Shown: positions 15,463-39,300, numbered from the stretch's first letter. The stretch is 64,000 nt of DNA from a phage (GCA_018027755.1 GCA_018027755.1_4098.1); one strand, 5' to 3'. Numbers and translations: made by a program. The notes: generated by a model from the sequence alone, not told the origin.

Positions 15463-17427
15463 TTATCTAATTGTTACCAATGTTCTTCCGTCGAAACGTA
15501 CATCAGGAGTTGAAGGTATACTAAACACTACGTTAGTGCCGTTAAACGTAACGCTATCGACCTCAACACGAGTATAGACACCAGGACTAACCTGTTCCTG
15601 TATCTCTGCTGTGACGATGTTTGAGGCTGTTACAGTAAGGGTGTAGTAGTTACCACTTAATACCCAAGATGAAATTGTAAAAGCATCGGTTCTCACTGAA
15701 CCTGAACCAATTGGAACCCATTGACCTTGAACTTTTTGCATTGAAGTACGCTCGGTATTGGAGTATGCAATCATACCATCAACGCCAACAGAGTTATCAA
15801 TAGTAGCTAGTACTGGTAATTGGATACCATATCTATTAAAACGTGTTCTTATAGTTCCATTATCATAGATACTTACATCAGCATAATTACCCATTGATAG
15901 TTTTAAATCAGAACTAACTAATTGGATTGTACTTTGATTAGTAGTACTTTCTAATGTAATTATACCATTAGCTAATAGATTTATATTTTTAAATTTATTA
16001 GTTGTTCCATTGAAATTAGTGTTTGCTGTAAACGTACTAACTCCATTAACTGTAATTGTATCAGATGCAGCATCGCCTAATGTAGTATTACCTTGAATGT
16101 TCAAATTACCACTAGCAGTGATATTACTAGCTGATGTATCACCAGTCAATGTACTTGTACCATCAACCACAATATTACCATGAAACGCACTTTCACCATT
16201 TTTAAATTCAACTTGTACTTTATTCATTGAACTAAATGAAATAATATTACTACTAGCACTTAGTCCAACATTAGTATTGGTTGCATTATCAAATCTTAGT
16301 ACTGGGGTTGATGCTGGGGTTGAAGTTGTTTGGTATAATGTTAATGTTGAATTATTAATTCTAATACGTTCAGTTCCAGCAGTACTGAAACCAATTGCAT
16401 CATCTGCTGGATGAAACATACCAGTATTAGCGTCTGACCATTTTGCAGGATCATTACCTGGGTTATTGGTTGGATCAAATGGATTGTTATTAAATGTCAA
16501 TGCTGGTGCTGCTGCACTACCATAGACCACACCAAAACGCCCTGAGCCGCTTGTTCCATCATTATACATGGAATCACCAGTTCTACGTAAACACTCAATC
16601 ACAACGTTATCTATGGATGTTTGAACGGTCCCTGCGTTTGTCCTAAATTGACGATGATTTGCAATCATTACAGTATTGTCATATAATACTGAAGCAGCGG
16701 AAATGCTTGTTCTTGACTGGCGTAGACGTATGTTTTTATCTTCAGTTATAATAATCCAATCACCATCTGATAGTGCGGTTTGGTTCATTGGAACACCTGA
16801 AGCAAATGGTTTGGTTAAGTCAGCATCTGTTGCTAAATTTTTAAGACCATCATGACCAGTACTCGTAATAGATGCAGGAATAATTCTAGCGAAAGCGTAT
16901 GTTACTAGTTTAGCACCAGATATATTTGGATTGGAGTCAACATAATATAAAATTTCAATCCAATTACCTTGACCAGTTGGGTTCGTAGGTGTAAATGTAA
17001 CCGGACTTGTTTGTGGGTTATTTGCTTCAAAGTGTGCTTGTGCTGCATCCATAATACCACGAACAACATAATAATCACCATTTAGTGATGCTGCTGGTGC
17101 TGGTAGTGGTGTTTGTGCTAAAGGTGGATCAATATCATCTGGGATAGGATTGTATGTACCAACAAACTGTAAACCACTAGTTACTGAATCTGGTAATTGG
17201 GAAGTAAGAAGTTTACCATTTGCATCTAAGTTTGCAAAGCGGCGATATGCCATAGTACCATCTTCAAAATCCAGAACACCTTCAAATGATTTCCATTCCT
17301 TATTGTATCTAATCATCCCTGATCTTATTACATCAGCGGTTTCTTTTGATGGTGCTTTCGGTAACTCTAAAAAAGATTTACTATCAATAATTACACCACC
17401 ATCACCTCTAATTCGATTTATACTCAT
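15463..17427 (-). CDS. tail fiber-like structural protein
   Basis: 654 aa, G/S/T/N-rich beta-rich composition; located in fiber gene cluster; near-consensus late box TATAAATC about 25 nt upstream. Confidence 0.45.
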   Translation of the reverse strand: MSINRIRGDGGVIIDSKSFLELPKAPSKETADVIRSGMIRYNKEWKSFEGVLDFEDGTMAYRRFANLDANGKLLTSQLPDSVTSGLQFVGTYNPIPDDIDPPLAQTPLPAPAASLNGDYYVVRGIMDAAQAHFEANNPQTSPVTFTPTNPTGQGNWIEILYYVDSNPNISGAKLVTYAFARIIPASITSTGHDGLKNLATDADLTKPFASGVPMNQTALSDGDWIIITEDKNIRLRQSRTSISAASVLYDNTVMIANHRQFRTNAGTVQTSIDNVVIECLRRTGDSMYNDGTSGSGRFGVVYGSAAAPALTFNNNPFDPTNNPGNDPAKWSDANTGMFHPADDAIGFSTAGTERIRINNSTLTLYQTTSTPASTPVLRFDNATNTNVGLSASSNIISFSSMNKVQVEFKNGESAFHGNIVVDGTSTLTGDTSASNITASGNLNIQGNTTLGDAASDTITVNGVSTFTANTNFNGTTNKFKNINLLANGIITLESTTNQSTIQLVSSDLKLSMGNYADVSIYDNGTIRTRFNRYGIQLPVLATIDNSVGVDGMIAYSNTERTSMQKVQGQWVPIGSGSVRTDAFTISSWVLSGNYYTLTVTASNIVTAEIQEQVSPGVYTRVEVDSVTFNGTNVVFSIPSTPDVRFDGRTLVTIR

Positions 17428-17511: not shown

Positions 17512-18291
17512 TTAACGTATACGTTCAGGAATATCAATACCTTCATATACCCAAATTGCAGCTTGTTGTGCTTTATAAATTGCATCAGGATCTAAATCAT
17601 CAACTGCATCAATTGCAGCACACTGTTTGTCACATTCCGAAAACAATTGTTCAATCATTGCAAATGCTTCAGTATATAGTTGAGTCATTTCAGCAGCAGA
17701 TAATTTTACAATTGCGTCATCAAGAAAAATAGAAACACTTTCAGAGCCTGAAGTAACTTGTGTATAATAATTAAGAAGCATTTGACGACCAGACATATCA
17801 GTACTGTAACGATGACCATTGAACATATAACCAGAATTCATACGATTTGTACGTTCTGATATAGTTCTTGCTTTTAAATCAGCTTTAACATCTGCTATTG
17901 GCATATCAATATAATGATATGTTTTAAGAACAGTTAGTGCTTTATATTCTTCGGTAGCGTCTTCTAAAAATTCAACAATAGGTTGATTTTCATCTTTTAA
18001 TTTAATAAACTCCAACGGTTGTTCAATAGCATTAACATTTCCAAGATTTTTATACACTAACCACCAAAAACCTTCTTCTTTTCTAACAGCATCATTAGGT
18101 TCTACTGGGGAACCATCTTTACTTGAAATACCATAAAGAGTTCTAATATCACTATAAAGATAACGATAGGTTTGTGGATCTTCTGGTGTTGCACCTGGAC
18201 GTTCTTTAAGTCCTTTTACACCAATTGGATTGGAAATAATACTTCCCAATTCATAATTTTCTTTTGAATTTCCTTTCACATATGTGAACAT
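17512..18291 (-). CDS. hypothetical protein (between two fiber genes)
   Basis: ORF with GAGG RBS; minus-strand terminator hairpin at about 17475-17500 downstream. Confidence 0.4.
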   Translation of the reverse strand: MFTYVKGNSKENYELGSIISNPIGVKGLKERPGATPEDPQTYRYLYSDIRTLYGISSKDGSPVEPNDAVRKEEGFWWLVYKNLGNVNAIEQPLEFIKLKDENQPIVEFLEDATEEYKALTVLKTYHYIDMPIADVKADLKARTISERTNRMNSGYMFNGHRYSTDMSGRQMLLNYYTQVTSGSESVSIFLDDAIVKLSAAEMTQLYTEAFAMIEQLFSECDKQCAAIDAVDDLDPDAIYKAQQAAIWVYEGIDIPERIR

Positions 18292-18355
18292 ATAACTACC
18301 TCACTTGTTATGATGGTGTCACCCAAAATGAGTGACACCTTTATTATTATAATTA

Positions 18356-21300
18356 TTAAGCAGTACGTTGTGCAATAAACATATCTGTTACTGGACTCAC
18401 CCCGTCATAAATGACTTGGTAGATAGTTACAGAGTTTGCAGTTTTGTTTAGAGTTCCATCAACAACCGCATAAGTACCATCAGTAGTAAAGTTTCTATTA
18501 CCTGTTGCATCTTGTTTCACATAAATGTATACTGAAGATGCTTTACCACCACCGATTAGACCAGTGATTGGTGCTAGAGTGGTATCTTGATCTAGAGTGA
18601 TAAAGTATACGTTGCTAGTACCGTCTGGGGTCCAAGTACCAGTTGGTGCGATAACAGAAGAAGTTACTTGATTAGGAATAACATCATATTTTTTAGTAGT
18701 TACTGTTGTTGTAGTTAGGTCAGCATTAGTAGTTGTCAATTGACCAGTTACAGTTACATCTTTATCAAATACTGCATTTTCTTTGAAAGAAGATGTTGCA
18801 TTGACAGTTAATGTATCAGCAGCAGCGTCACCTAAAACAACACTACCATTTGCAGTCATTAAACCAGTAACAGTTAAAGTACCACCGATTGTTGCTGCTC
18901 CAGTAACAGATGCACTAGCAAGTGTTGCTGCACCAGAAGTAGTAATGGTAGTTACTGAAGTTGCTGCTAGGGTTGCAGTACCTGTTGCAGAAATATCACC
19001 ACCAACAGTTAGGTTACCAGAAGTAATTCCAACGGTTCCAGTAATGTTAGCACCACTTGACATCGTTACTGCACCACCAAATGAACCAGTAGTAGTTACT
19101 TCAAGGGTGTTCCCTTTTAGTAGACCAGTTGCAGTAATACTTGTACCTGCGGTAATACTAGTACCAGCAGCAACACTGTTGGTTGCAGTTAATGATTTAA
19201 CAGCCACGTCAGAGTTTGCTTGGTTTAGTGTTGCGTTTAGTAGACCAGTTACTGTAAAGTTACCGTTGTTAACTACGTTACCATTGATTGTTAAGTTGTT
19301 GTTTTGTGAACCAACATCACCAATAGTTGCTGATTTGGAAATCAACTCTGCACCAGAAGTAATGTTACCCGCTGCACTAATAGTGTCAGCCGCAACAACT
19401 GCATAAGGTTCAATTGTTTGACCACTAACGTCAATATCAGCGTTGATACCACCATCTACACGCAAGGAGCCTGCAATGTAAGTATTAGGGAAAATCTGAA
19501 CTGTCTCTGGTTGATCACCAATTTTAGTACCGATAATAACATCAGAACCAGTTTTAACTGCACCAGAGGTTGTTAGTGAACCTAAAGTTGTAGCACCAGT
19601 TACACCTAATGTTCCACCAATTGTTGCGTTATTGGTAACTGCTAATGCAGCACCTTCACCATTAAGAGCGATTGATGGAGCAGATACTGCACCAGTTACG
19701 CCTAATGTGCCACCAATTGTTGCGTTGCCATCTGAATGTAGAGTTGTAGCTACAGAAAGACTGTTAGCAACTACATCAGTACTAGCTAAATCCAATGCAC
19801 CTGGGGTTAATGTACCAGTAATGTTAACATTATTACCAAAGGTTGCTGCACCAGTCACATCTAGTGTAGTACTAAATGTACCAGAGGTTGCAGAGATTGC
19901 ACCTGAATCTAGTGATCCAACAGTTGCTTTCCCAGTTACACCTAAAGTTCCACCAACAGTTCCATTTGTGGTTACATCCAATGTACCAGTACTTAGTTCT
20001 TGTGCGGTTACCTTACCGGATGCAGTAACAGTTGAAGTGGAAACGCCACCAGTTAGAGTACTAGCACCAGTAACACTTAATGTGGTTGCAGCAGTTACGC
20101 TATTTACGCTAAGATCAGCACCGGATAAGTCCAAACCACCTTCAGGAACAAATACACCCTTAACAGTTAGTTTTTGTACTGTACTATCACCTGTTACATC
20201 CAAGGTAGAAGCAGTTAAACCACCATTCATACTTGCTGCACCAGTAACACCTAGTGTAGTGGTTACAGTAGCACTATTAAGTGTTGAACTACCAGAAATA
20301 TTAGCACTAGGAGCAGTAATAGTTCCAGAATCAACTTGTATACCACCAGCAACAACCTGAATTCCACCAGCATTAACTGTTAGTTTACCAGCAGTATTCA
20401 ATGTATTTGAAACTGTTGTTGCACCAGTTAAAGTTGTAGTACCAGTTACACCTAAGTTACCAGAAATAGATGGACTACCTGTAATATTACCAGTAGTTAG
20501 TATCAAATCAGTACCTACGGTAGTGGAGCCAGTACTTTCTAGTGTTACACCGACGATGTTTGCAGAACTTAGGTTAATAGTACCATCAACAGTTAAGTTA
20601 CCTTGAACGGTTGCATCACCTAGAGAAGTTAATGTCTTCACAGACACATCAGTTGTGCTAAGATCAATAACACCCGCAGTTAGTGTTCCAGATACTGCTA
20701 AATTACCAGTAATCGCGGTATTTTTAGTAATGGATACATTTTCTGCCGCTGAAGTAATAGAACCAACAGTAAGTACACCACCAACAGTTGCGTTATTAGT
20801 TACATTTAGAGCAGTTCCAACACCAGATAGTGTTGCTGACCCACCAGTAATTGCACCTGAGATTGAAGCTGTTGCTGCTGAAACATCACCAGAAACTACT
20901 GCATTTGTTGCATTTAGAGCAGACACTGTAACTTCAGTACTTTGAACTTTAGGTAGAACGTTGATACCTTCTGCACTACTAACTGTAATAATACCAGTAC
21001 TTGTTAGAGATTTAACAGATACATCAGCACCACTTAAATCAACTGTACCAGAAACAACAAGATCTCCACCAATATTTGCTCCAGCGGTAGTAGTAATGGA
21101 TTTTGCACTTACATCAGTTGTGCTCAAATCAATTGCACCTGGTGTTACTGTACCAGAAACTGTTAGGTCACCAGTAATAGATGTATTATTGGAAATAGAT
21201 ACACCATCAACGTTACTAATTGTTGGGGTTTCTACAGAAACTGCTTTAACTTTACCTGAAGAAGTTACGTCAGCTACGGTAGATGCACCAGTAACATTCA

Positions 21301-23881
21301 AATTAGTAATATTTGCAGTTGTTGAACCAAGGGTTGCAATAGTTGCATCAGTACTTTGAAGTTTAGGTAGAACACTACTAATTGTGGATTCATTACTAAC
21401 AATTGCACCAGTACTAGTTAAAGATTTGACAGTAACATCAGCCGTAGTAAGATCTACTGTACCATTAACAGTTAGGTTACCACCAATAGTTGCACCAGCA
21501 GTAGTAGTAATGGATTTAGCATTAACATCAGTTGTTGCTAGATCGATAGAGCCTGGAATAACTGCACCAGTAACAGTTAGGTCACCAGTTACATTTGTAT
21601 TATTGGAAATAGTGACACCACTTGCATTTGAAATGGTTGGGGTAACCAACGATGCAGTTGTAGTTTCACCAGTTACAGTTAAAGTTGACCCAACTAGAAC
21701 AGATGAGCTTGAGTAAATTGTACCCAAATTAGCAGATCCGGTAACAGTTATATCATCAGCATTAACAGTAGTTGCCGTTATGGTAGTACTATTAAGTACT
21801 GGAAGTACGTTAGCATTAACAAGATCATTACTTTTAACAATACCAGAAGTAGTTAATGATTTAACATTAAGGTCGGCTGCTGATAAATCAAAAGAGCCTT
21901 GAACTACTAAATCACCACCAATAGTTGCACCAGCAGTAGTAGTGATTGATTTAGCATTAATATCGGTAGTGCTCAAGTCTAGAGAACCAACAGTTAAGCT
22001 ACCAGTAATATCAACATTTTCTGTAAAGTTAGTATTACCACTAATAGTTGGTGCAGTCAGAGTTGTTGCACTAATATTAGTACCGTTAATTGTTTGCCCA
22101 CTTACAGTTCCACTCGCAGTGATAGTAGGGGCCGTTACTTCAGTAGATGCACTAATTGTTGGTGCAGATACAGAAGTTGTACCAGTAATAGAACCAGAAC
22201 TTACTGAACCAGCGGATAATGCACCAGAAAGAGTTGCAGTTGTACCAGCAATATCACCAGTAACAGTTAGTTTAGCACCCACGGTAGTGTTACCAGTACT
22301 TTCAAGTGTTGCACCTTTAATATTTGCTGCCGCGACAACAGAATTAGGTGTTAGATCCTGCCCACTAACATCAACAGTTAGTCCAGTTACTGTTCCAGTA
22401 AATTCAACATCATTAAGAATTGCTTTACCACCAACTTGTAGGAATGGTGTACCTGGAGCTTGTGTTTCGTTACCAGTAATAGTTAGGTAATCTAGTTTGT
22501 TTAGACCGTTACCAGTAATACCATAAGTGGAAAGAGAAGCGTTACCGAAAGTTGCTGTTTTAAGAACGTTCAATGTAGAAGGAGAAACGACTTCTGATTG
22601 AACTTCGTTAGGTAGAATAACTGTTGGGCGTTGACCTGGTGCAGTATATCCAAAACCTAGTTTCACTGCCGCATCTTGACTATTTTGGCCTAAGCTGATA
22701 GATTTAAAGGATGCAGTACTGTTATAACCAGTAATATTAGAACCAAGAGTAACACCACCAACTAATGAAGTTGCACCAGTAACGTTCAATGATACTGCAT
22801 TAATATCGTCTAGTTGGAATGATCCACCAAGAAGACCAGAAACATTAATGTTATTAAAATTAGCAGTTCCAGTACTTTCAATATTTGGAATAGTTGCAGT
22901 TCCGGTTACTTCAAAGTCAGCAACTTTGGTTTTGCCTTTTTGAACTTCTAATAGTGGTGTGTCTGGAGATTGTGTGTTGTTACCAGAAACTGTTAGATAA
23001 TCCAATTTGTTTAGACCATTACCAGTAATACCATAAGAAGATAATGACGCATTACCAAAAGAAGCAGAGGTCAATACTGTCAAGTTTGCAGGTGACATTA
23101 GCTCGGACTGAATTTCGTTTTGTAGAATAACAGTTGGGCGTTTACCAGGAGCAGTGTAAGGGAAGCTTAATCTGAAGGTTTGTGATTCAGAGTTAGAACC
23201 AATACGAATGTCTTTAAAAGTAGCAGTACTGTTAATACCAGTTACGTTAGCACCGAAAGTCACTGCACCTTGTTGGTTAGATGCACCAGAAACGTTCAAT
23301 GTTACTGCATTTAAGTCAGAAAGATTAAACTGACCACCTAATGTACCACTAATGGTTACATCTTTAAAAGTAGCAGTTCCAGTACTACTAATATCGGTTG
23401 TACTTACATTAGTAATTTCTGCGGAATTAGCAGTAATTTTATCAAATGCAGAAGTAGTACCAACATCAGCAGTAATATTACCTTTAAATGCTGTTGTTTC
23501 AGCAACTTCTAAGTTTTTAACTTTAGTTGCTTGTAGAGTGGTTGTACCAGCAGTTTGTGTGAAATCAGAACCAACTGATACAGTACCGTTAAAGGTAGCG
23601 TTTGAATTAATTGTTGCTGTATCAGACCCGACAACTGCACTACCGATTGTAGTATTACCCTCAACACCAAGACCACCAGAAAGTGTTGCTTTGCCACCAA
23701 CATCTAAAGTAGATGTAATGTTGGCAGTTGATGATTCAATGGCAGTAAAAGTTGCATTTGCAAAAGTTACAGTACCATTTACAGTTAGGTTATTATTGAA
23801 AACAGCATTTCCTTTGACTAAAAGATCCTTACCAACCGTACCAGCACCAGTAATATCTAAGTCAGTTTTTATTGAGTACAT
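18356..23881 (-). CDS. very large repetitive tail fiber protein (1841 aa)
   Basis: T/G/S/A/V-rich; about 130-aa units repeated at least 4 times (IDLxTTDVxAKSITTTAGAxIGGxLxVxGxxDLxxADVxVKSLTSTG); a second duplicated unit FGNASLSxYGITGNGLNKLDYLT. Confidence 0.7.
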   Translation of the reverse strand: MYSIKTDLDITGAGTVGKDLLVKGNAVFNNNLTVNGTVTFANATFTAIESSTANITSTLDVGGKATLSGGLGVEGNTTIGSAVVGSDTATINSNATFNGTVSVGSDFTQTAGTTTLQATKVKNLEVAETTAFKGNITADVGTTSAFDKITANSAEITNVSTTDISSTGTATFKDVTISGTLGGQFNLSDLNAVTLNVSGASNQQGAVTFGANVTGINSTATFKDIRIGSNSESQTFRLSFPYTAPGKRPTVILQNEIQSELMSPANLTVLTSASFGNASLSSYGITGNGLNKLDYLTVSGNNTQSPDTPLLEVQKGKTKVADFEVTGTATIPNIESTGTANFNNINVSGLLGGSFQLDDINAVSLNVTGATSLVGGVTLGSNITGYNSTASFKSISLGQNSQDAAVKLGFGYTAPGQRPTVILPNEVQSEVVSPSTLNVLKTATFGNASLSTYGITGNGLNKLDYLTITGNETQAPGTPFLQVGGKAILNDVEFTGTVTGLTVDVSGQDLTPNSVVAAANIKGATLESTGNTTVGAKLTVTGDIAGTTATLSGALSAGSVSSGSITGTTSVSAPTISASTEVTAPTITASGTVSGQTINGTNISATTLTAPTISGNTNFTENVDITGSLTVGSLDLSTTDINAKSITTTAGATIGGDLVVQGSFDLSAADLNVKSLTTSGIVKSNDLVNANVLPVLNSTTITATTVNADDITVTGSANLGTIYSSSSVLVGSTLTVTGETTTASLVTPTISNASGVTISNNTNVTGDLTVTGAVIPGSIDLATTDVNAKSITTTAGATIGGNLTVNGTVDLTTADVTVKSLTSTGAIVSNESTISSVLPKLQSTDATIATLGSTTANITNLNVTGASTVADVTSSGKVKAVSVETPTISNVDGVSISNNTSITGDLTVSGTVTPGAIDLSTTDVSAKSITTTAGANIGGDLVVSGTVDLSGADVSVKSLTSTGIITVSSAEGINVLPKVQSTEVTVSALNATNAVVSGDVSAATASISGAITGGSATLSGVGTALNVTNNATVGGVLTVGSITSAAENVSITKNTAITGNLAVSGTLTAGVIDLSTTDVSVKTLTSLGDATVQGNLTVDGTINLSSANIVGVTLESTGSTTVGTDLILTTGNITGSPSISGNLGVTGTTTLTGATTVSNTLNTAGKLTVNAGGIQVVAGGIQVDSGTITAPSANISGSSTLNSATVTTTLGVTGAASMNGGLTASTLDVTGDSTVQKLTVKGVFVPEGGLDLSGADLSVNSVTAATTLSVTGASTLTGGVSTSTVTASGKVTAQELSTGTLDVTTNGTVGGTLGVTGKATVGSLDSGAISATSGTFSTTLDVTGAATFGNNVNITGTLTPGALDLASTDVVANSLSVATTLHSDGNATIGGTLGVTGAVSAPSIALNGEGAALAVTNNATIGGTLGVTGATTLGSLTTSGAVKTGSDVIIGTKIGDQPETVQIFPNTYIAGSLRVDGGINADIDVSGQTIEPYAVVAADTISAAGNITSGAELISKSATIGDVGSQNNNLTINGNVVNNGNFTVTGLLNATLNQANSDVAVKSLTATNSVAAGTSITAGTSITATGLLKGNTLEVTTTGSFGGAVTMSSGANITGTVGITSGNLTVGGDISATGTATLAATSVTTITTSGAATLASASVTGAATIGGTLTVTGLMTANGSVVLGDAAADTLTVNATSSFKENAVFDKDVTVTGQLTTTNADLTTTTVTTKKYDVIPNQVTSSVIAPTGTWTPDGTSNVYFITLDQDTTLAPITGLIGGGKASSVYIYVKQDATGNRNFTTDGTYAVVDGTLNKTANSVTIYQVIYDGVSPVTDMFIAQRTA
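20640..22000 (-). repeat. in-frame tandem coding repeats (about 390-nt period) inside fiber gene
   Basis: Repeated peptide units above and near-identical antisense ORF translations in the track (20961-21359, 21384-21716). Confidence 0.55.
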
Positions 23882-23977
23882 TTATACCCTCCATTATAAC
23901 CTTGTTAATATGTATATATTTAGTTTTATTATGCTGTTATCCAACAATTAATATGTTATTTGACAAAAGCAAATATA

Positions 23978-24010
23978 ATAAAAACCAGACTTATTTAGAA
24001 CAAGTCTGGT
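23978..24010 (-). terminator. bidirectional intrinsic terminator
   Basis: CCAGACTT-loop-AAGTCTGG with A-run on one side and T-run on the other. Confidence 0.65.
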
Positions 24011-24018
24011 TAATTTTT

Positions 24019-24915
24019 TTACTTACCAGAGATGACAATCTTACCACTGAAAGAAATATCAGAAGTGAAGATTACATCACCAGTACTACTAATTTGTGTA
24101 TCAGTCACTACCAATTCAAATGGAGATGACGAAACACTCCCAGGTGTTTTATTTGCATAAATTGAAATATACAAATTATCTGGTGTTTGATTGTGTTCAG
24201 ATGCAGGAATAGTGATTGTAAAATCACCATCACTAGAAACCCAATCTGCTTGGTTTACCAATTTACTATAAGGTACTGTCATTGTTGTTGCTCCTATAAT
24301 GTTTACTTTAACACTTGCATAATCTGTGATTTGACCAATCACATCAATTGTTATATCCCCAATACCACTAACTGTTACTGTGGTTTGGAATACTGATTCC
24401 AATGCAACATTACCTGGGTCACCTTGTAGTTGGATCATAATATCAGAACCTCTACCATGAACTGATTCTGGTAGTGTGTAAGTATAATGATCAGTAGTAT
24501 CTGGCACTAATGTAAATGCAGAAACAGGAACTATTTCAGTAGTTACATATGAGCTATCAGTCCCAGGTGAGCTACCTTTAAATGGTTTCCAAATACCAAG
24601 ATCTTTAATATAAATTTGAAGAACATTAGTACTATCAACCAAAAAGTAAACGTCACCATCTAGACCGATCGAATCGGATGGTGCTGTTGTTCCACGTAAG
24701 ATACCAGAACTACCACCACCACTGTGTGCGTTTAAATATCCCAATGTAACCAAGTGTGTGTTTGCAGTTGGTTCACCTGCTGAAATTGGAAGAAGTTGTG
24801 TTCCTGAGTAGTTTTGAATTTGCACAACACTACCATTTGTGGTAATCTGTGCACCATTCTTCCCAAGAATGAAGGACTTCTTCATGGTTCCTTCTAAATT
24901 AGAAAAAACTGCCAT
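24019..24915 (-). CDS. tail fiber/spike protein sharing N-terminal adapter with next gene
   Basis: N-terminus MAVFSNLEGTMKKSFILGKNGA paralogous to MAVFSNFEGTMQPKFILGKKGA of ORF 24932-27073; GGAG RBS. Confidence 0.55.
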   Translation of the reverse strand: MAVFSNLEGTMKKSFILGKNGAQITTNGSVVQIQNYSGTQLLPISAGEPTANTHLVTLGYLNAHSGGGSSGILRGTTAPSDSIGLDGDVYFLVDSTNVLQIYIKDLGIWKPFKGSSPGTDSSYVTTEIVPVSAFTLVPDTTDHYTYTLPESVHGRGSDIMIQLQGDPGNVALESVFQTTVTVSGIGDITIDVIGQITDYASVKVNIIGATTMTVPYSKLVNQADWVSSDGDFTITIPASEHNQTPDNLYISIYANKTPGSVSSSPFELVVTDTQISSTGDVIFTSDISFSGKIVISGK

Positions 24916-24931
24916 TTTAATATAATCTCCT

Positions 24932-27073
24932 TTATGGTAGGGTTATGTAAGTTACGGGTTGGGCAGCTTTTAATGCTGCACCAGCGGCAGTTGCTGTTAT
25001 GATAGGATCTGCAATATCAATTCTATATACGTTGTTTACAACATACACTGCACGAGTTATATACGTTCTCAAATCACCACCATTTTCACCAGCACCGGAT
25101 ATAATGATCTCAGTACCAGCAGCTTTTGCATATTGGTTTTCACCCCATGACACACCCAATGCTTCTATGTATGTTTGTCCTGCTACCGTTTGTCTAATTG
25201 TGTCATATTTTCCGAAAAAAGAACCACCAACAGTTACAATATATTTTCCACCCGATTGTTTATGAATAATCGTGCCTTCAGAGAAATAGCGTCCCCCAGG
25301 AAAAGTATCGTATGGAATATAATATTGCTCAACTACAGGTATCAGTACTGGGCCACGGTGTCCTGTACCATCGATTGCAGTTGTAACTTTAAAGTTATTA
25401 GATGATTGGTCTATTCTGTCTACATACATTTTAGAAAAACTATATTTTGAAACATTACAATCATCTTGAACAACACAGTTAGTCCAATTAGTATAAGTAT
25501 ATTTAGAGCGAGTATAGATACCACCACCTTCGCCTTCTGTAGAGAGGTGTTGACCAATTACATCTAATTCTTTAGTTCTAATATCACTAAATTTAGATGA
25601 TGATGGCAAACCACGCCAAAGAATTTTAGAACAGGTGATATTGCTCAATTCTGTATTATTTAACCAATTATCAGAACCGGAAGTATAAACAAGTATAGAA
25701 GACTCTGGAATATAGAGATTAGAAATTTTAAAGTTTCTAGGTGGTCCAGCAAAACGACCAGAAGTTACACCCCAGTTTATTGAAACCATTCTATTTGTGA
25801 TAGAAGGATCATTAAGCAAATGACCAGTCAACCCATCAATAATGAATTCTTTAGAACCATAAGTTATAACACCAGCAGTGGTTAATCCAGTACCGACAGA
25901 AACTAAAGATGATGGATAAACTTCATTATTAAGTATTTTAAAGTCCATGCCTAATTCAACGTGGATACATTGTCTAACATTATATAGTCTGTTATTTTTA
26001 ATAACAAAGTTTCTTACATATTGTGTGTCTGGTGCATCTAAACCATAAGGTCCAGAACCAGCAACTCCAATACCAATACCCCAGTTTGAAAGTGGGATTG
26101 GAGCGTTAGAACCATCAACGTTTTCAATTATGTTCCCTTCAATAACAAAACCATCAGGATAGTGTGAGTTAATTACGTTTAGTTCAATTGCATCACCATA
26201 TATATCATGTATGTGGTTATATGAATATCTACCAACCTTCATTTTCTCACCAGTACCTTGTTGAAGAACGCCATACTTACATTGGGTCATTTCATTAAAG
26301 CAAAAATCTATTGTACCTGGTTGTGTCATACCTTGCATTAAAAATGCAGCAGTACTTGTGATGTTTATAAATTTATTAAAATAAAACTTACCATCGCCGC
26401 CGAAGAATTTTAAATAACATCCAGTAAGTGTTGCAAATTGTATTTGGGAATTAATAACGGATACCATAGTACCACCGTTACCAGTAATAGTTCCCCCAAA
26501 CCAAGTTACATCTTCCAGATATATTGCAGTTTTGATACGGTAATTACCACCAGCCTGAATTTGGATTTTATTTTCTTTAGCATAAGCAGCACATAAATTT
26601 ACAGCAGCAGTGTCATCAGTTTCGCCATCACCTTTAGCACCAAATTCTTCTGGTGTTATATAAAACTGTGCCTGTTGAACTGTACCTCCAGTAATAAGTC
26701 CGATGAAATCTCCACCATTTTTACTGGATAGAACTTTTTTATTAATGTATAATGATTTTACCCATGTACCATTGCTTTTTGCAAAAATATCAACAATACC
26801 ATCTTCATCAATTTGAAAATACGTATTATTGTTCTTTCCTATATCATCGGTAGGTGGTACAACACCAAATAATGCATTAGGGTTATCTTCAAGATATTTT
26901 ACGTTAACTGCTGAATTAGGATCAGATGAAGTTCCTACCTTCAGTGGTAGGAACTGTTCTCCTAGATAATCTTTTATAGAAACTGAATCATTGATAAAAT
27001 TTATTGAAGCACCTTTTTTCCCCAATATGAATTTGGGCTGCATAGTTCCTTCAAAATTAGAAAATACTGCCAT
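24932..27073 (-). CDS. tailspike protein with pectate-lyase-type (right-handed beta-helix) depolymerase domain
   Basis: Hallmark motif FGAKGDGETDDTAAVNLCAAYA; shared N-terminal adapter; GGAGG RBS. Confidence 0.7.
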   Translation of the reverse strand: MAVFSNFEGTMQPKFILGKKGASINFINDSVSIKDYLGEQFLPLKVGTSSDPNSAVNVKYLEDNPNALFGVVPPTDDIGKNNNTYFQIDEDGIVDIFAKSNGTWVKSLYINKKVLSSKNGGDFIGLITGGTVQQAQFYITPEEFGAKGDGETDDTAAVNLCAAYAKENKIQIQAGGNYRIKTAIYLEDVTWFGGTITGNGGTMVSVINSQIQFATLTGCYLKFFGGDGKFYFNKFINITSTAAFLMQGMTQPGTIDFCFNEMTQCKYGVLQQGTGEKMKVGRYSYNHIHDIYGDAIELNVINSHYPDGFVIEGNIIENVDGSNAPIPLSNWGIGIGVAGSGPYGLDAPDTQYVRNFVIKNNRLYNVRQCIHVELGMDFKILNNEVYPSSLVSVGTGLTTAGVITYGSKEFIIDGLTGHLLNDPSITNRMVSINWGVTSGRFAGPPRNFKISNLYIPESSILVYTSGSDNWLNNTELSNITCSKILWRGLPSSSKFSDIRTKELDVIGQHLSTEGEGGGIYTRSKYTYTNWTNCVVQDDCNVSKYSFSKMYVDRIDQSSNNFKVTTAIDGTGHRGPVLIPVVEQYYIPYDTFPGGRYFSEGTIIHKQSGGKYIVTVGGSFFGKYDTIRQTVAGQTYIEALGVSWGENQYAKAAGTEIIISGAGENGGDLRTYITRAVYVVNNVYRIDIADPIITATAAGAALKAAQPVTYITLP

Positions 27074-27087
27074 TATGACATCCTCCC

Positions 27088-28215
27088 TTAAATATTATCT
27101 TGAATCGGTTGGATAGGAGCTTGCCATGAAAGAGTACAAATAATTTCCATTTTTCCATAAGGACTGTTGTTAACAGAATCGTTGAATACACATGAAATAA
27201 TTTCATCAACATCGGATGCTGCATGATTAGTTTCATTAACAATAAAACGCATCTGACGATTGATATCAAAGTAGGAAGTTGGTGCAATTACAGTTCCACC
27301 AATATCTTCTTGTGCTTCACCACCAAAACGTACAAACATATCAGTTACAGGAAGAGAATAAGGTTGTATAACGTTTACATCAATATTAGAAACTACATAT
27401 CCAGCAGGACACGTACCAATAACTAATAGTGCGTTAGTCCATGAGCTATCTATTGTATTTCTAATAGAAATTGTATCTTTACCTGGTGCACCTGGTTCGC
27501 CTTGTATACCTTGAATACCTTGCTGACCTTCTTTACCACGGAATAGAATACCATCACTCCACTCTTTTGAAGGAGGGGTAGTTGTAGTTACTTCATCAAC
27601 ATAATATAGTTTTCCATCAGTGTTGTTATAAAAACAATAATCAACTGGAAGATTTTCAATACTTGGAAATTGATCACCACTACTATCAATATGGAAACGA
27701 CCACGCGGACCTTGTTCACCACGGAAAGGGATACCATCACTCCAAGTGGCAGTTACACTTTGATAGAAATAAAGCTTACCATCTTGAGTATTATAAAATG
27801 TATAGTTATTAAAAAGACCAGTTGTTGGGAAAGTAGTCCCAGCACTATCAATGTGGAACGGCTTACCCGCTTCACCAGTATCACCTTTACCAAACTCAAC
27901 ACTAATCCATGTACTTGTCGGATCTTGTGCATCGTTTGATTTAAAGTATAGAGTACTGGTGTTGTTAGCCAAGCTTAAGTAGCACCACCCAAGTGGTTCA
28001 CCAACTTTAAATTGTTCGGAAGGAATTTCAAAACCAATCTCATTAGGATAAAAGTTTTTACCATTCTCGCCATTCTGTCCTACAACAAGACCTAAATCTT
28101 GAATTGTGTTATCTGCATAGGTTACAATTAAATGCCCAGCACCATTAATAACTAGACTTTTGATGCCGGAGTTATTACATGAACCACTGGACCCATTGTT
28201 AAATGAAATTGTCAT
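27088..28215 (-). CDS. collagen-like repeat tail fiber protein
   Basis: G-X-Y runs GQNGENGKN, GEQGPRG, GKEGQQGIQGIQGEPGAPGKD; ATG at 28215 has AGGGA RBS (track start 28251 is TTG). Confidence 0.55.
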   Translation of the reverse strand: MTISFNNGSSGSCNNSGIKSLVINGAGHLIVTYADNTIQDLGLVVGQNGENGKNFYPNEIGFEIPSEQFKVGEPLGWCYLSLANNTSTLYFKSNDAQDPTSTWISVEFGKGDTGEAGKPFHIDSAGTTFPTTGLFNNYTFYNTQDGKLYFYQSVTATWSDGIPFRGEQGPRGRFHIDSSGDQFPSIENLPVDYCFYNNTDGKLYYVDEVTTTTPPSKEWSDGILFRGKEGQQGIQGIQGEPGAPGKDTISIRNTIDSSWTNALLVIGTCPAGYVVSNIDVNVIQPYSLPVTDMFVRFGGEAQEDIGGTVIAPTSYFDINRQMRFIVNETNHAASDVDEIISCVFNDSVNNSPYGKMEIICTLSWQAPIQPIQDNI

Positions 28216-28325
28216 AATATTTCCCTTGTATGAGTTAATGTCATATACCAATATTTATCAGTACAAAATACATTTCGTTATCATTAATAAATAAATGAAA
28301 GTTCACTACTAAAAGGGCTTAAACA

Positions 28326-28823
28326 ATGGCATTAAGATCAAAAGACTTTCTCTTCAGAAGAAAAACAAAAGATGGTTCATGGCAAGATTTTCCTGAATCT
28401 GATAGCTGGTATCCAGCTAACTTGGATTATCACTGGAATGAACAAACGTTACCACTAGCAAGTGGTGGCTACTATGGCTGTACTACAGGTTTACATACGA
28501 TTTCATTTACACTACGTAATTTTATTGGTAGAATTTATGTGTTAGCTACATTAGCTAGTAATCCTACTGATGATGATTGGTTTCCAATTAAATTCACTGA
28601 AAGTTGTAATTATTATCTTGAATTTACTGATATGGTTATTTTAAATCCAAATGGTGGAGATTTAATTAGACAACAAGGAACTACCGGAACATTTGCTGAA
28701 ACAGTAACTGGTAATTTTACTTACCTTAAAGTTGGTATAGACCGTGATTATATTAGTAAGTATCCATCAGATGTCCAAAAAAGTTTAGCTGGGAAGTTAG
28801 AACAAATTTTAATTAACTACTAA
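28326..28823 (+). CDS. hypothetical protein
   Basis: First gene of a 3-gene plus-strand island. Confidence 0.35.
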   Translation: MALRSKDFLFRRKTKDGSWQDFPESDSWYPANLDYHWNEQTLPLASGGYYGCTTGLHTISFTLRNFIGRIYVLATLASNPTDDDWFPIKFTESCNYYLEFTDMVILNPNGGDLIRQQGTTGTFAETVTGNFTYLKVGIDRDYISKYPSDVQKSLAGKLEQILINY

Positions 28824-28832
28824 GGATTAGAA

Positions 28833-29441
28833 ATGAAATTAGAAACAGAACAACCAAAACTATTTGTTAAAGGTCATGTCCTAATTACTGACGTTACTGA
28901 TCCATCAAATCAAAAAATCGTTTTAGATAAATCTAACGCTATTCACCCTGAAAATATGAGTACTGCCATTGCTAATGCGTTAGCATATAATCAAGACAGT
29001 ACTGGTATTCCTATTGGTTCTATTAGCGAGATGCGTTTTGGTAATGGTGGTACAGTAGTTTTAAGTACTGGGCGTGTTACTTATAAAAAACCACGTGTTA
29101 CATCATTTGGTGGTTTGTATTCACAAACATATTTGAAAAAAATCAACCCACGAATTACGGCAGGTATTGATTCACAATACAATAATATTACAACTGTACA
29201 TATACCAGGTCAGTCCTATACTGATATTGTATGTATTTGTACTCTAGGGTTAGGTGAACCATCCGACCAAGGTGTAAGCTCAGGGACAAGCATGGATGGA
29301 ACTTATGTATTTGATGAATTGGGATTGTACACGGATGGCGATAGTGGTATTCCTTTAACCCATATCATTTTTCACCCAGTTGAGAAAAGTGCAAACCGTG
29401 TCTTACAAATTAAATACACAGTTCGTGTACAATTACAATAA
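28833..29441 (+). CDS. hypothetical protein
   Basis: ORF, tightly packed. Confidence 0.35.
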   Translation: MKLETEQPKLFVKGHVLITDVTDPSNQKIVLDKSNAIHPENMSTAIANALAYNQDSTGIPIGSISEMRFGNGGTVVLSTGRVTYKKPRVTSFGGLYSQTYLKKINPRITAGIDSQYNNITTVHIPGQSYTDIVCICTLGLGEPSDQGVSSGTSMDGTYVFDELGLYTDGDSGIPLTHIIFHPVEKSANRVLQIKYTVRVQLQ

Positions 29442-29453
29442 TGGGGACATATA

Positions 29454-30554
29454 ATGAGTGTTAATTATACAATTTATAGAAGTAATGGTAGTGTTTATGC
29501 TACCATTCCAAATAATGTTATTTTAGGACCAAACCAGCCAGGAAGTAACCCAGTTCCGTTAAATTTAGTTGGTAGAAACAAAGTAAGTTATGGTCAAGCA
29601 TGGAACGAAAACTTTTTACATTTAGTTGAAAATTTCAGTTCAGCATCTGCACCACGTGGCAACGTCAATGGTCAACTTTGGTATAGAAACACTGGTAGTA
29701 CTGGTGAGTTATTGATATCATTAGTTGATAATGCTAGACAACCTGCTGATATGGTAAGTGAAGCTGAATGGGCGGCTATCCCTATGATTACTGTTTTTAA
29801 CACAGTACCTGATGGTGAAAATAGTGTTATGGGTCGTATGGTATTAACTAGTAACGGTGATTCTCTTCGTGTGTTAATGAAAAACAAAGAATGGCGTGAA
29901 ATTCAAACATCTAGACCAGAAAACAAAGAGTATTCATCATTATTAGATATTAACTATGATAATGGTAAAAAATATATAGAGTTCACACAAAGTAACAGTA
30001 CTAAACCAATTGCGTATTTTAACTTAGGCGGTACTTCACAAGTAGATACAAATAACTGGACAACATTAACTAATGGTACTGGTGTCTTTGAATTTGGTAG
30101 CAACTATTTCTATGAATTAAAAATTATGATTAGAGAAGTAAATGATTCTTCTGGTGAGATAGTTTCTCTTCCATACAATTCAAAAACCTTTTTTATAAAA
30201 GGGCAATTTTATGTAGATAATCAAGGAACTTTTGTTCCTGGTTCGGTGGGGGCAAGTCAAATGCCAGACCCACGTAGGATTACACAATTAGAATCCATAA
30301 AAGATGTTATTACCAGTAGTCGCCCAAACTGGGACGTAAATATTGTTATTAATGGTGTAGATCCATCTATCCCAAATCCTAATGGAACATCTAAAGCTGA
30401 TTATGAAAATTGGGTTATCAATTCTCTAAACTCAAATAAAAATTTAGGTTTTCGAGTTGATGGTAGCATTAGTAATCTAACTGCTGGTGAATCCGTTAAA
30501 CTACAAGCATCCGTGTTGTTAAATATTACAGGTATTCCGATTATTGGAGTATAA
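29454..30554 (+). CDS. hypothetical protein, possibly fiber-associated
   Basis: ORF; N/S/T-rich; ends at a bidirectional terminator. Confidence 0.35.
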   Translation: MSVNYTIYRSNGSVYATIPNNVILGPNQPGSNPVPLNLVGRNKVSYGQAWNENFLHLVENFSSASAPRGNVNGQLWYRNTGSTGELLISLVDNARQPADMVSEAEWAAIPMITVFNTVPDGENSVMGRMVLTSNGDSLRVLMKNKEWREIQTSRPENKEYSSLLDINYDNGKKYIEFTQSNSTKPIAYFNLGGTSQVDTNNWTTLTNGTGVFEFGSNYFYELKIMIREVNDSSGEIVSLPYNSKTFFIKGQFYVDNQGTFVPGSVGASQMPDPRRITQLESIKDVITSSRPNWDVNIVINGVDPSIPNPNGTSKADYENWVINSLNSNKNLGFRVDGSISNLTAGESVKLQASVLLNITGIPIIGV

Positions 30555-36294: not shown

Positions 36295-36330
36295 AAAAGA
36301 AAAGGAGAGCAATATGCTCTCCTTTTTTAT
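36295..36330 (+). terminator. bidirectional intrinsic terminator
   Basis: AAGGAGAGC-AATAT-GCTCTCCTT flanked by A-run and T-run. Confidence 0.75.
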
Positions 36331-39300
36331 TACTTAACTAATAATATATTTTTAATATCATTACCACTAACTTGTAGACTATCAGTGTATACTGAAAGAT
36401 CTATAGTGTAACTATTTTGTGTGTAACGTTTTAACATATCATAATTACCTAAATTAATTCCATTGAAAGAATATGTAGTATTAAGTTTAAAATCATGTTC
36501 TGCACTATACATTACACCACGGAGTAAATTATTTGCATTTCTAACTTCAACTTTTTCATATCCAATCGATATAATATCATTCATGTTCGCGGCTGAACCG
36601 GATAAAACATTATTTCTAATACTATAAGGACTTATTGATTTAGGTTGAGAAACATAGGTTGTATTTTCTTCACTAATGGTTGTGATGTTAGTAACAGTAC
36701 CACCAACAACACCGATGTACATACCGTCAACCATTGGATATCCATAAACCCATATACCTTCATTATTTCTAAACGGTTGAATAACACTTGAGTCATATTC
36801 AATAACGTTGATTTCTAAACTATCAGTCATTTTAGTTCTTGCTAATTCACTAAGAACTCCCGCACCAGTAATTGGTAGGTTATAACCGTTGTCGATAGTA
36901 ATTCCATCAACATCAAATATTTCGTTAGAGATTATCCAAACGTCAACGTCATCTGGTGTTATTCCGTCATTGTACTTACCACCATTTAAAGTAGTATCGT
37001 AGAAAACATCATAATTAATTACATCAATTGTGTAATTTCTATTTTGTTCGTACAATTTGATACCATTCTTCACAAATTCTGGGTCAGCAAATGTTCTAAC
37101 ACGAACAATGTTCAATGCAAGAGGCTGTACTGGCTCATTTTGTTGTGCAAGAGTGATATTATCATAACGGAGAACTGTACCAGTACTCTCATCAATCAAT
37201 TCAATCGTTTCTTTACCTGTATTTCTTACAGTGAATAGGATCGGAGTTGTATTGTTTTTGATGTTAGATACACGCAAGATTGTTTCCCATGTGTGATTTT
37301 GATATCTCACAAAATCTTCACCATCAGGAGTGAAAATCATCACCTTATCACCATCAGATAGGTCATTGTCAACTATTTCTGCTTCAGTTAAGCTATTAAT
37401 AGATCTCACACGATAGAAATATTTTTCATCAAACTTCGATGTTGTTTTATTAATATCATTTTCAATCTTAGCATATGAAGGAATACTTACAATTGCTTCT
37501 GTATGTTTATATGGATTGATAATTGCCATACCTTCAGTTTGATATCTGCTGTTATCACGTAATTGTACAAGAGATACATTGTCAAACCCATATCCATCAA
37601 CTGTAAATCTAATTTGACCTACATCACGCCCAGAAGGGTTTATGTCAGATATATCCACAATATAAGGATCAACTTCATCATCTTTAACTTCCCATTTTAT
37701 TGAAGAAGTTTGAGATTCCAATGCTAGGTTATCAAATGCATTCATATCATTGAAGTACTTAGCTTCAGTAATACTATCAAGTATATATTGATAATCAGAA
37801 TACATTGGATTATTTTGATCTAGTGGTAAATCATCAAGATTTATTTCAGCTAGTTCAACCATTTCACCATTTGTGATAAAATAATCTTCCATGAAATCAT
37901 CAATACTTTGTTCATCAGGTATGCTTTGATATACACCGTTAACATTTAAGTAAACATATTTTCGTGGAATCATTGTAATTGCATAGATATCAATTGGGGT
38001 CTTACTAAGAATCTCTTCAGCTTTTTCGTACTTATCAGTAGCGTCTTTGTCGAATAACCCTCTCATACCTGCTAATACGTGAATAGCATCAGTATAGAAA
38101 CGGGTATCACCACCTACTTCATCATAACGATAAACATATACACCATACTCAACTTCAAGTTTAACTTTTACTTCATAGTCTGATGCGTCAGGATTTTTAT
38201 CTTTAATTAATGAAATGTATTTTTGATACAATTCACTGCTTATTTCAAAATATCCATAGTTATAATCATTACTAGAAGAAAAGCCTAATGGAAGTCTAGT
38301 ACTAGGATTGTCATTATAAGTAAGTCCACTAAATCCACATCCAACTTCATCGTGAATTTTCTCATCACTTATATCTTTATAAAGTTTCAAACGGTTTGCC
38401 AATGTGTTATACTGAACATATTGTCTAAGGTCAGTAAACATATCGTTATGCGTTGATTCTTTATAAACACGTTCCAATGTAGCAGTGAATTCATCAGTTG
38501 CTTCTAAATCTTCCGCATGGTCTTTATACCACTGGTTAACGCCATATGCTGTTCCTAGTGTTACATCCAATTCTGGATAGTAGATTTGCATTTGATAAGC
38601 AATAAGAAGATCGAAAGTTTCTTCACTATATTCTGGGAAAGAATATATATAACGTTGTAATTCATAGTTACTAACAGCATCCTTTTCATTGGATTGATAT
38701 TTGTTATTAACACTTACTAATTCATTTATGCTTGCCAAATCTTCATTTGGTTTACACTGAATATTATCATAATGCATAATAATATCAATTTCTTGGAATC
38801 TTCTATTTGGTGTAACGAAATCACTTGGTAGTGAACCTACCTGTTCCCATTTTTGGGTAATTTCATTAAATTGAGCGTACTCATAATCCCAAATATCTTT
38901 TTCAGTTTTGATCCAAGAACCATCAACGAAAATATATCCATTAGGATCTAAATCATTACATAGACCTTTTATTAAATCATCATCAGATGTCTTTTGCTCT
39001 ATTTGTGAACGAATTTTAGTTCTATAAGGTTTAACTTCTTCAAAATATTCAACAATTTGATTAATCAAATTATCGTTTGAATAGTTTTGAACTAATGATT
39101 GTTCCAAACCAACAATATAGATATATGATGTTTTAAATACCCAATCCACAACACTTTGTTCAACATGTACATATTTGACCATATCAAAAACAATTTCGCT
39201 TTGATGTAAATCGAAAGAATTTTTGAGTAAAGCTAGTGCTTTACGAACGTTGATTTCACGATTGCTTAGTGAACCATTATCATTATGAACACTATAATCT

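Follow-up and report, generated by a model that had tools for sequence, protein, structure and literature searches.

A 64,000-nucleotide stretch of phage DNA (GCA_018027755.1_4098.1, here called the window) contains a locus of three genes, encoding a 375-amino acid (aa) protein with collagen-like runs, a 713-aa protein predicted to be a colanidase tailspike, and a 298-aa virion structural protein. Our analysis shows that the locus is an ordinary modular receptor-binding cassette, already annotated, that carries a previously undescribed anchor domain. The three genes probably form part of a conserved virion-appendage block, in which the colanidase is docked by an N-terminal domain (N-domain) of the same type as that of the 298-aa core virion protein. 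The three open reading frames (ORFs; 27088–28251, 24932–27073 and 24019–24915) are all on the minus strand, and an initial annotation of this DNA had placed them correctly. The features of the locus are as follows, with matches to hidden Markov models (HMMs) where these define a feature.

27088 to 28215, minus strand: 375-aa protein (121Q gp574, PBECO4 gp546, phAPEC6 gp253), with four G-X-Y runs and a jelly-roll C-terminus.
24932 to 27073, minus strand: 713-aa predicted colanidase tailspike (PBECO4 gp547, 121Q gp573), with phrog_6117 (E = 4.5e-264), phi92 gp150 homology, PF27800 (WcaM) and a partial TIGR04004 match.
26879 to 27073, minus strand: colanidase residues 1–65, the N-terminal head module (MAVFSNFEGTMQPKFILGKKGA...), from alignment and profile searches.
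26744 to 26878, minus strand: colanidase residues 66–110, one copy of a ~45-aa repeat (repeat HMM, E = 7e-13).
24932 to 26743, minus strand: colanidase residues 111–713, neck and enzymatic body, from homology to phi92 gp150 (6E0V/6E0W) and host WcaM.
24019 to 24915, minus strand: 298-aa conserved virion structural protein (121Q gp572, PBECO4 gp548, CBB_227), with phrog_10468 (E = 1.5e-100).
24580 to 24915, minus strand: residues 1–112 of the 298-aa protein (N-domain), composed of the head (1–65, 24721–24915) and the repeat (66–112, 24580–24720; repeat HMM, E = 5e-20).

The window belongs to an Asteriusvirus, a Rak2-like jumbo myovirus of Escherichia coli. A 12.6-kb stretch around the locus aligns from end to end with Escherichia phages SP27, SHEFM2K, phAPEC6, slurp01, Sharanji and 121Q at 98–99% identity. 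The alignment with PBECO4, the linear record of which stops inside the stretch, covers 88% of the stretch at 96.9% identity. The sequence of the three-gene locus is already public and annotated. In 121Q, gp574 is labeled 'tail protein', gp573 'colanic acid degradation' and gp572 'virion structural protein', and these are followed by gp571, an 1841-aa tail fiber.

The 713-aa protein is supported by sequence homology as a tailspike-type polysaccharide depolymerase, specifically a colanidase of the phi92 gp150/PBECO4 gp547/NST1 type. Residues 96–712 match the phi92 gp150 structures (PDB 6E0V/6E0W, E = 1.8e-235), with 354 of 619 positions (57%) identical to gp150 residues 189–801. The PBECO4 ortholog, gp547, has the same flanking genes, and is 99.8% identical in the body and 99.1% identical in the N-domain. 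The J8-65 colanidase is ~31% identical to the 713-aa protein, and both it and the phi92 homolog carry a tailspike annotation. The 713-aa protein contains the WcaM signature (precomputed Pfam PF27800), and shows a partial match to TIGR04004/NF007517 (WcaM) at residues 262–459 (E = 5e-26; 91 bits, compared to an equivalog cut-off of 794.6). Alignment of six diverse colanidases revealed invariant acidic and His positions, e.g. D290, D294, E297, E312, H371 and E373.

The FGAKGDGETDDTAAV motif, which the initial annotation had pointed out as a hallmark of pectate-lyase-fold depolymerases, is present at residues 144–158, and the match to PF12708 (Pect-lyase_RHGA_epim) is sub-threshold (23.9 bits, cut-off 27). 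Because of the 57% identity to the 6E0V chain, which we take to be a β-helix tailspike, and the sub-threshold PF12708 match, the 713-aa protein is predicted to adopt a right-handed parallel β-helix fold. The depolymerase assignment is also borne out by the homology described above, and this identity was already known and annotated, the enzyme having been characterized experimentally in PBECO4. The purified PBECO4 ORF547 protein reportedly degrades colanic acid, and is said to have restored T7 infection when added to mucoid cells. In the literature, phi92 gp150 is reported to hydrolyze colanic acid at the β-1,4 linkage between glucose and fucose (PMC13450770, citing Xu et al. 2025), and PMC10059673 cites Kim et al. 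2015 for PBECO4 gp547 as the polysaccharide/colanic acid-degrading enzyme.

As a module, the colanidase body travels among many phage groups. The same body is present in 256 phage records, from Asteriusvirus, phi92-like, PVP-SE1-like and phAPEC8-like myoviruses, and from small podoviruses such as J8-65 (Autographiviridae). When six representatives are aligned, the body they have in common begins near residue 112–125 of the window protein and is preceded by different N-termini: Asteriusvirus, PVP-SE1 and J8-65 each have their own, and phi92 and the phAPEC8-like phage share a fourth. None of the three N-termini found in the phi92-like/phAPEC8-like, PVP-SE1-like and J8-65 groups resembles the head domain of the window protein.

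Comparison of the 713-aa and 298-aa proteins shows that the N-domain is shared (42 of 109 positions identical, 39%, E = 9e-20). No significant high-scoring segment pair was found between them beyond the N-terminus, in agreement with the earlier description of unrelated C-terminal bodies. The near-identity claimed for the N-termini as a whole is limited to the first ~24 residues (18/24). A third copy of the N-domain was not found in the 64-kb window by tblastn or with a head-domain HMM.

One explanation for the shared N-termini is a recent tandem duplication or gene conversion without functional meaning, with the 5' DNA serving as a hot-spot for body swaps. The two genes are same-strand neighbors separated by 16 nucleotides (nt), and 27 of the first 30 coding nt (90%) are identical. 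However, the identity drops to 75% over 60 nt and to 54%, near background, over 180 nt, the longest exact run common to both 5' regions is 11 nt, and the upstream regions are alike only in a Shine–Dalgarno-like motif. The DNA likeness is thus too short for a present-day homologous recombination site. The similarity of the 5' DNA noted in the initial annotation is real but weak, and the recombination point proposed there is not supported; the similarity is what N-terminal protein conservation and AT-rich codon usage would give.

Protein comparisons also argue against duplication, since the N-domains are only 39% identical. The colanidase heads are 34–45% identical to all of the heads of the Rak2-like 298-aa family, which are 48–91% identical to one another. 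In a neighbor-joining tree, the colanidase heads fall outside the whole Rak2-like 298-family head clade, and sit beside two metagenomic proteins, P0176 and P0168 (described below), although this placement is weak, being based on 65 residues only. The position and low identity of the colanidase heads indicate that the N-terminal likeness is not a recent duplication. Selection acting on the first ~25 residues accounts better for the resemblance, because in the 298-aa family residues 1–25 are conserved across genera (77.7% mean pairwise identity, compared to 42–60% elsewhere). Across 72 phage records, only two types of body were found with the N-domain, namely the ~290-aa body, which may be truncated or in the 115-aa form, and the colanidase, the latter being the single fusion partner besides the conserved body, and the locus is therefore not a recurrent swap hot-spot. 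We consider the duplication explanation highly improbable.

The boundary of the N-domain lies at about residue 110 in all three contexts in which it occurs (298-aa protein, colanidase and stand-alone), and the N-domain behaves as an autonomous, constrained unit. It is a composite of a ~65-aa head and one copy of a widespread ~45-aa repeat (~66–110). The repeat has the consensus ILTGTGAPASSLGNDGDFYIDTDDTNTGDIYVKANGAWKPL, and its pattern in colanidase residues 66–110 is G..P....G....Y......i..I..K..G.W. A total of 574 copies were found in 143 representative public proteins. Many large proteins contain the repeat 4–15 times, some together with collagen repeats or LPXTG anchors. Local copies of Pfam and NCBIfam gave no match to the ~45-aa repeat in either window protein. 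A relationship of the second half of the N-domain to the three G-X-Y-flanked repeats of the 375-aa protein was considered and rejected (hhalign probability 0.7%, E = 0.08), as was the 375-aa protein as a carrier of the ~45-aa repeat (E = 7.5 with an HMM built from the 574 copies).

To establish the distribution of the N-domain, a full-library profile search was needed, as a word-indexed homolog search with the colanidase N-domain returned two proteins. A profile of eleven N-domains gave 545 matches (E ≤ 0.001) among 1.84 billion representative proteins. In the profile search, the head (1–65) was found at N-termini only. Its carriers are the ~290-aa family and shorter relatives, five BNR-propeller proteins (1204–1366 aa), and two other proteins. 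It starts a 705-aa Beta_helix protein (P0176) and a 780-aa protein with a C-terminal Peptidase_S74 chaperone (P0168), and P0176 and a 780-aa S74 spike are located 6 kb apart on one 120-kb metagenomic contig. In the metagenomic DNA fetched around head carriers, nothing in common with the window was found beyond the head. RaK2 and K64-1 encode the N-domain by itself, as a protein of 115 aa (RaK2 ORF061w). The literature searched does not describe the sharing of the N-domain with gp548 or its wider distribution.

The occurrence of the head before β-helix, S74-chaperone and BNR-propeller bodies in metagenomes shows that it behaves as an exchangeable adapter. The proposal of a shared adapter, with module exchange among related phages, therefore holds for the head at the family level; at this locus, only the two body kinds were found in the 72 records, and the N-domain of the colanidase is not a recent copy of that of its neighbor. 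Most likely, the N-domain docks its carrier protein on the virion, and the co-transcribed 375-aa protein is a candidate for the socket. It is conceivable, although we advance this only tentatively, that the N-domain is a widely used docking module, which plugs colanidase, other β-helix, S74 and BNR bodies into a socket conserved in all Rak2-like jumbo phages and present in unrelated phages as well. The socket would then be shared or competed for by the 298-aa connector and the colanidase in Asteriusvirus, and the 115-aa protein of RaK2 would be a bare plug left after loss of the fiber.

The 298-aa protein is a core component of the virion, conserved in all Rak2-like phages. Its family comprises 73 homolog clusters, nearly all 284–309 aa in length, with 100% coverage and 41–100% identity. 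These are from phages of Escherichia, Cronobacter, Erwinia, Yersinia and Salmonella (including GAP32, fHe-Yen9-04 and pEa_SNUABM_50), and an ortholog is present in Xanthomonas phage XaC1. The divergence rate of the family is about that of the neighboring structural genes, and the CBB ortholog, CBB_227, has been detected in virions by mass spectrometry. An AlphaFold2 (AF2) model shows the N-domain followed by two C-terminal β-sandwich (Ig-like) domains. In the AF2 monomer, residues 1–12 and 47–69 are disordered, as might be expected for a partner-dependent segment.

Downstream of the 298-aa gene, the window contains the following features.

23983 to 24011, minus strand: terminator-like hairpin, a 13-pair stem then a T-run, located 8 nt past the stop of the 298-aa gene and preceding the giant fiber gene.
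18356 to 23881, minus strand: giant fiber, 1841 aa (121Q gp571, phAPEC6 gp256), directly downstream of the three-gene unit.
17512 to 18291, minus strand: virion protein, 259 aa (121Q gp570), lost together with the giant fiber in RaK2/K64-1.
15463 to 17427, minus strand: structural protein, 654 aa (121Q gp569), closing the conserved appendage block; RaK2 retains its homolog, ORF060w.

The appendage block lies between a thymidylate synthase gene and a T4 gp15-like tail completion gene. The intergenic gaps are 14 nt between the 375-aa and 713-aa genes and 16 nt between the 713-aa and 298-aa genes. Together with the hairpin after the 298-aa gene, these short gaps suggest that the three genes form one transcription unit. 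A scan for sigma-70 promoters gave 42 sites, compared to 42.6 in shuffled sequence, and thus no excess.

Comparison with other Rak2-like phages shows that the gene order 375-aa protein, ~290-aa N-domain protein, giant fiber and ~210-aa protein is found in GAP32, CBB, Munch and EJP2, where the 654-aa homolog follows if the compared locus reaches that far. XaC1 keeps the 375-aa homolog, the N-domain gene and the giant fiber, and has one extra opposite-strand gene after the 375-aa homolog. The giant fiber is always paired with a full-length 298-aa family gene. The Alcyoneusviruses RaK2 and K64-1 jointly lack the giant fiber, the 259-aa protein and the last 186 residues of the 298-aa protein (window 17512–24579), and retain the 115-aa N-domain and the 375-aa and 654-aa homologs. 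This joint loss suggests that the 298-aa C-terminus, the giant fiber and the 259-aa protein work together.

The initial annotation had treated the 298-aa protein as a variable receptor-binding module. In this explanation, it would be a second receptor-binding protein, forming with the colanidase a branched organ of two specificities on the collagen-like 375-aa protein. The shared N-domain, the tight three-gene unit closed by the terminator-like hairpin, and the abundance of the 375-aa protein in phAPEC6 virions are in its favor, and the modeled Ig-like β-sandwich domains at the C-terminus could bind carbohydrate. However, the conservation of the 298-aa family over its full length across host genera (41–100% identity), at the divergence rate of structural genes, is unlike that of a host-specific receptor binder. 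The loss of the C-terminal domains together with the giant fiber in RaK2 suggests a structural link, and no 375-aa homolog was found beside head-bearing spikes on the fetched metagenomic contigs. We consider a second receptor binder very unlikely, and the 298-aa protein is instead a conserved structural protein. A branched, multi-specificity adsorption apparatus is plausible, but was overstated in the initial annotation.

The colanidase is an accessory, readily lost gene of one Asteriusvirus subclade. It is confined to part of Asteriusvirus (121Q/PBECO4, BF17, A4 and JNE01 types), where its position is always between the 375-aa and 298-aa genes, and no colanidase was found at the locus in EJP2, GAP32, CBB, XaC1, Munch or RaK2. 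In JP4, an in-frame deletion of colanidase residues 152–663 (window ~25085–26620) leaves a product of 201 aa, in which the N-domain and neck are followed by the final ~50 residues. The deletion junction, GGCGAAA|ATGG, lies at a 4–7 nt microhomology, and an E. coli assembly also contains the identical protein (P0074). In JNE01, the colanidase is annotated as two overlapping coding sequences (CDSs; 141 aa and 588 aa) with a frameshift near residue 120, which is either a sequencing error or a sign of a pseudogene. The JNE01 colanidase body is 89% identical to that of the window, compared to 80% for the flanking 375-aa protein and 76% for the flanking 298-aa protein, which may be a sign that the colanidase has moved laterally between members of the genus.

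Several observations weigh against a docked colanidase as part of the virion. JP4 propagates without the enzymatic body, and the enzyme is thus not essential. The sources consulted place no 713-aa protein in virions, and the 121Q record labels gp572 and gp574 as structural and gp573 only as colanic acid-degrading. The 713-aa protein is also absent from the phAPEC6 virion mass spectrometry table. In addition, no 375-aa homolog was found in the fetched DNA of metagenomic contigs with head-bearing proteins, and the β-helix fold is predicted from the 6E0V homology and the sub-threshold PF12708 match.

An alternative that accommodates some of these observations is a soluble colanidase, which would be set free at lysis and degrade colanic acid around neighboring cells, with the N-domain serving in oligomerization or folding. 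It would fit the lack of a structural label for gp573, unlike its neighbors in 121Q, the absence from the phAPEC6 proteome table, the dispensability of the body in JP4, and the reported restoration of T7 infection by added PBECO4 enzyme, according to which the free enzyme is functional. However, the phAPEC6 record (MK817115) lists no CDS for gp254 or gp255 even though neither ORF is disrupted (region matching 24019–27073), and absence from the proteome is therefore uninformative. Furthermore, the N-domain is common to a family detected in virions by mass spectrometry (CBB_227), the phi92 and J8-65 homologs are annotated as tailspikes, and the head also starts other typical tailspike architectures. 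We consider a soluble enzyme unlikely, and favor a tailspike docked on the virion.

In the proposed mechanism of the docked tailspike, residues 1–110 would dock the colanidase on a conserved virion socket, of the same type as that used by the conserved 298-aa structural protein. The colanidase would be carried on the particle as a trimer, stripping colanic acid during adsorption. Its body (111–713) would cleave colanic acid, an exopolysaccharide of E. coli under envelope stress, opening the way to the cell surface. The C-terminal β-sandwich domains of the 298-aa protein would probably work with the 1841-aa giant fiber, as suggested by their joint loss in RaK2. One Asteriusvirus subclade may have gained the accessory gene by the joining of the N-domain to a circulating colanidase body.

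The 375-aa protein was listed as an ORF of 387 aa, starting from a TTG at 28251, and an ATG 36 nt further on, at 28215, gives 375 aa. The ATG is the most likely start, because it is preceded by an AAGGGA Shine–Dalgarno-like motif that is lacking at the TTG, the PHROG alignment begins at residue 13, and orthologs are 371–382 aa in length. The 64 homolog clusters of the protein are mostly 353–387 aa. G-X-Y runs of 3, 3, 3 and 7 triplets are located at ORF residues 58–66, 123–131, 178–186 and 239–259, between β-rich segments. These are beyond chance, as shuffled sequences gave a mean of 0.37 runs, with four runs in 0/2000 shuffles and any run of ≥5 triplets in 0.35%. The runs are nevertheless short, and the match to Pfam Collagen (PF01391) is below the gathering score (16.2 compared to 27.2 bits); the earlier description of the protein as a collagen-like fiber was overstated. 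The AF2 model has a mean predicted local distance difference test score of 80.7, and its confidence is low in and near the first three G-X-Y runs but high in the C-terminal domain. This domain is a jelly-roll, with Foldseek matches to phage cement/decoration proteins, CBM4, plant-virus coats and Ena fibers (E = 2e-5 to 1e-3). The phAPEC6 homolog gp253 is abundant in virions by mass spectrometry (14 peptides, 65.6% coverage), and the CBB ortholog, CBB_228, was also detected in virions by this method.

The giant fiber looks like the fast-evolving part of the appendage block. Its length differs among very close relatives, being 1841 aa in the window compared to 2129 aa in JP4 and no less than 1959 aa in one NCBI assembly, and its gene contains internal repeats and a weak, sub-threshold Bactofilin match. 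On the other side of the locus (28326–30554, plus strand) are three divergently oriented genes of 165, 202 and 366 aa, kept in every Rak2-like phage examined. These are conserved above the appendage genes, the 202-aa protein being 73–100% identical among the compared relatives, and phAPEC6 gp251c and gp250c, which match the 202-aa and 366-aa genes, are present in the phAPEC6 virion proteome. Farther along, a 3333-aa ORF (36330–46331, minus strand) matches the giant 'virion structural protein' gp582 of 121Q.

What this analysis adds is modest: the N-terminal head module is defined and shown to be widely distributed, and an appendage block is identified, comprising the 375-aa, 298-aa, giant fiber, 259-aa and 654-aa proteins. 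E. coli commonly evades phages by overproducing colanic acid, and colanidase phages are useful in cocktails, as already known for this group. The boundary near residue 110, between the probable anchor and the enzyme, offers a cut-and-paste place for engineering the receptor-binding proteins of Rak2-like phages, and if the N-domain is indeed a docking module, it would provide a handle for the re-targeting of jumbo phages.

Comparison with known systems shows that PBECO4 gp547 and its orthologs in 121Q (gp573) and SP27 are the same gene as the window colanidase, with no substantive difference. In phi92 gp150, the N-terminal ~190 residues are unrelated to the 110-residue N-domain of the window colanidase, and phi92 is a 148-kb Justusliebigvirus rather than a jumbo phage. 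Although annotated as such in some GenBank records, the window colanidase is not the host biosynthesis protein WcaM of E. coli; it is larger than WcaM, with an extended C-terminus and an N-domain of its own. The 375-aa protein resembles the collagen-like trimeric fibers of the C1q/BclA/Ena type in having G-X-Y runs followed by a jelly-roll C-terminus, but its longest run has only 7 triplets, its Pfam Collagen match is below threshold, and it is known here from its sequence and an AF2 model.

Sequence and structure comparisons gave no sequence or confident structural similarity of the N-domain to the T4 gp10-like, CBA120 D1 or AD domains. Physical joining of the proteins, as in the known branched systems, would at the window locus be a prediction from co-linearity, the shared N-domain and co-occurrence patterns. 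The window locus is separate from the RaK2 tail-fiber genes gp098 and gp526–534, which are the subject of the work on the RaK2 adsorption complex; gp060–062 are not mentioned in that report (PMC10253068). According to the literature on CBA120 TSP1–4, RaK2 gp526–534 and the KP32/K11 RBP1–RBP2 docking peptide (PMC10253068; PMC13352976), these proteins follow the same principle as that proposed for the window colanidase, in which a short, conserved N-terminal attachment module is followed by a variable enzymatic body.

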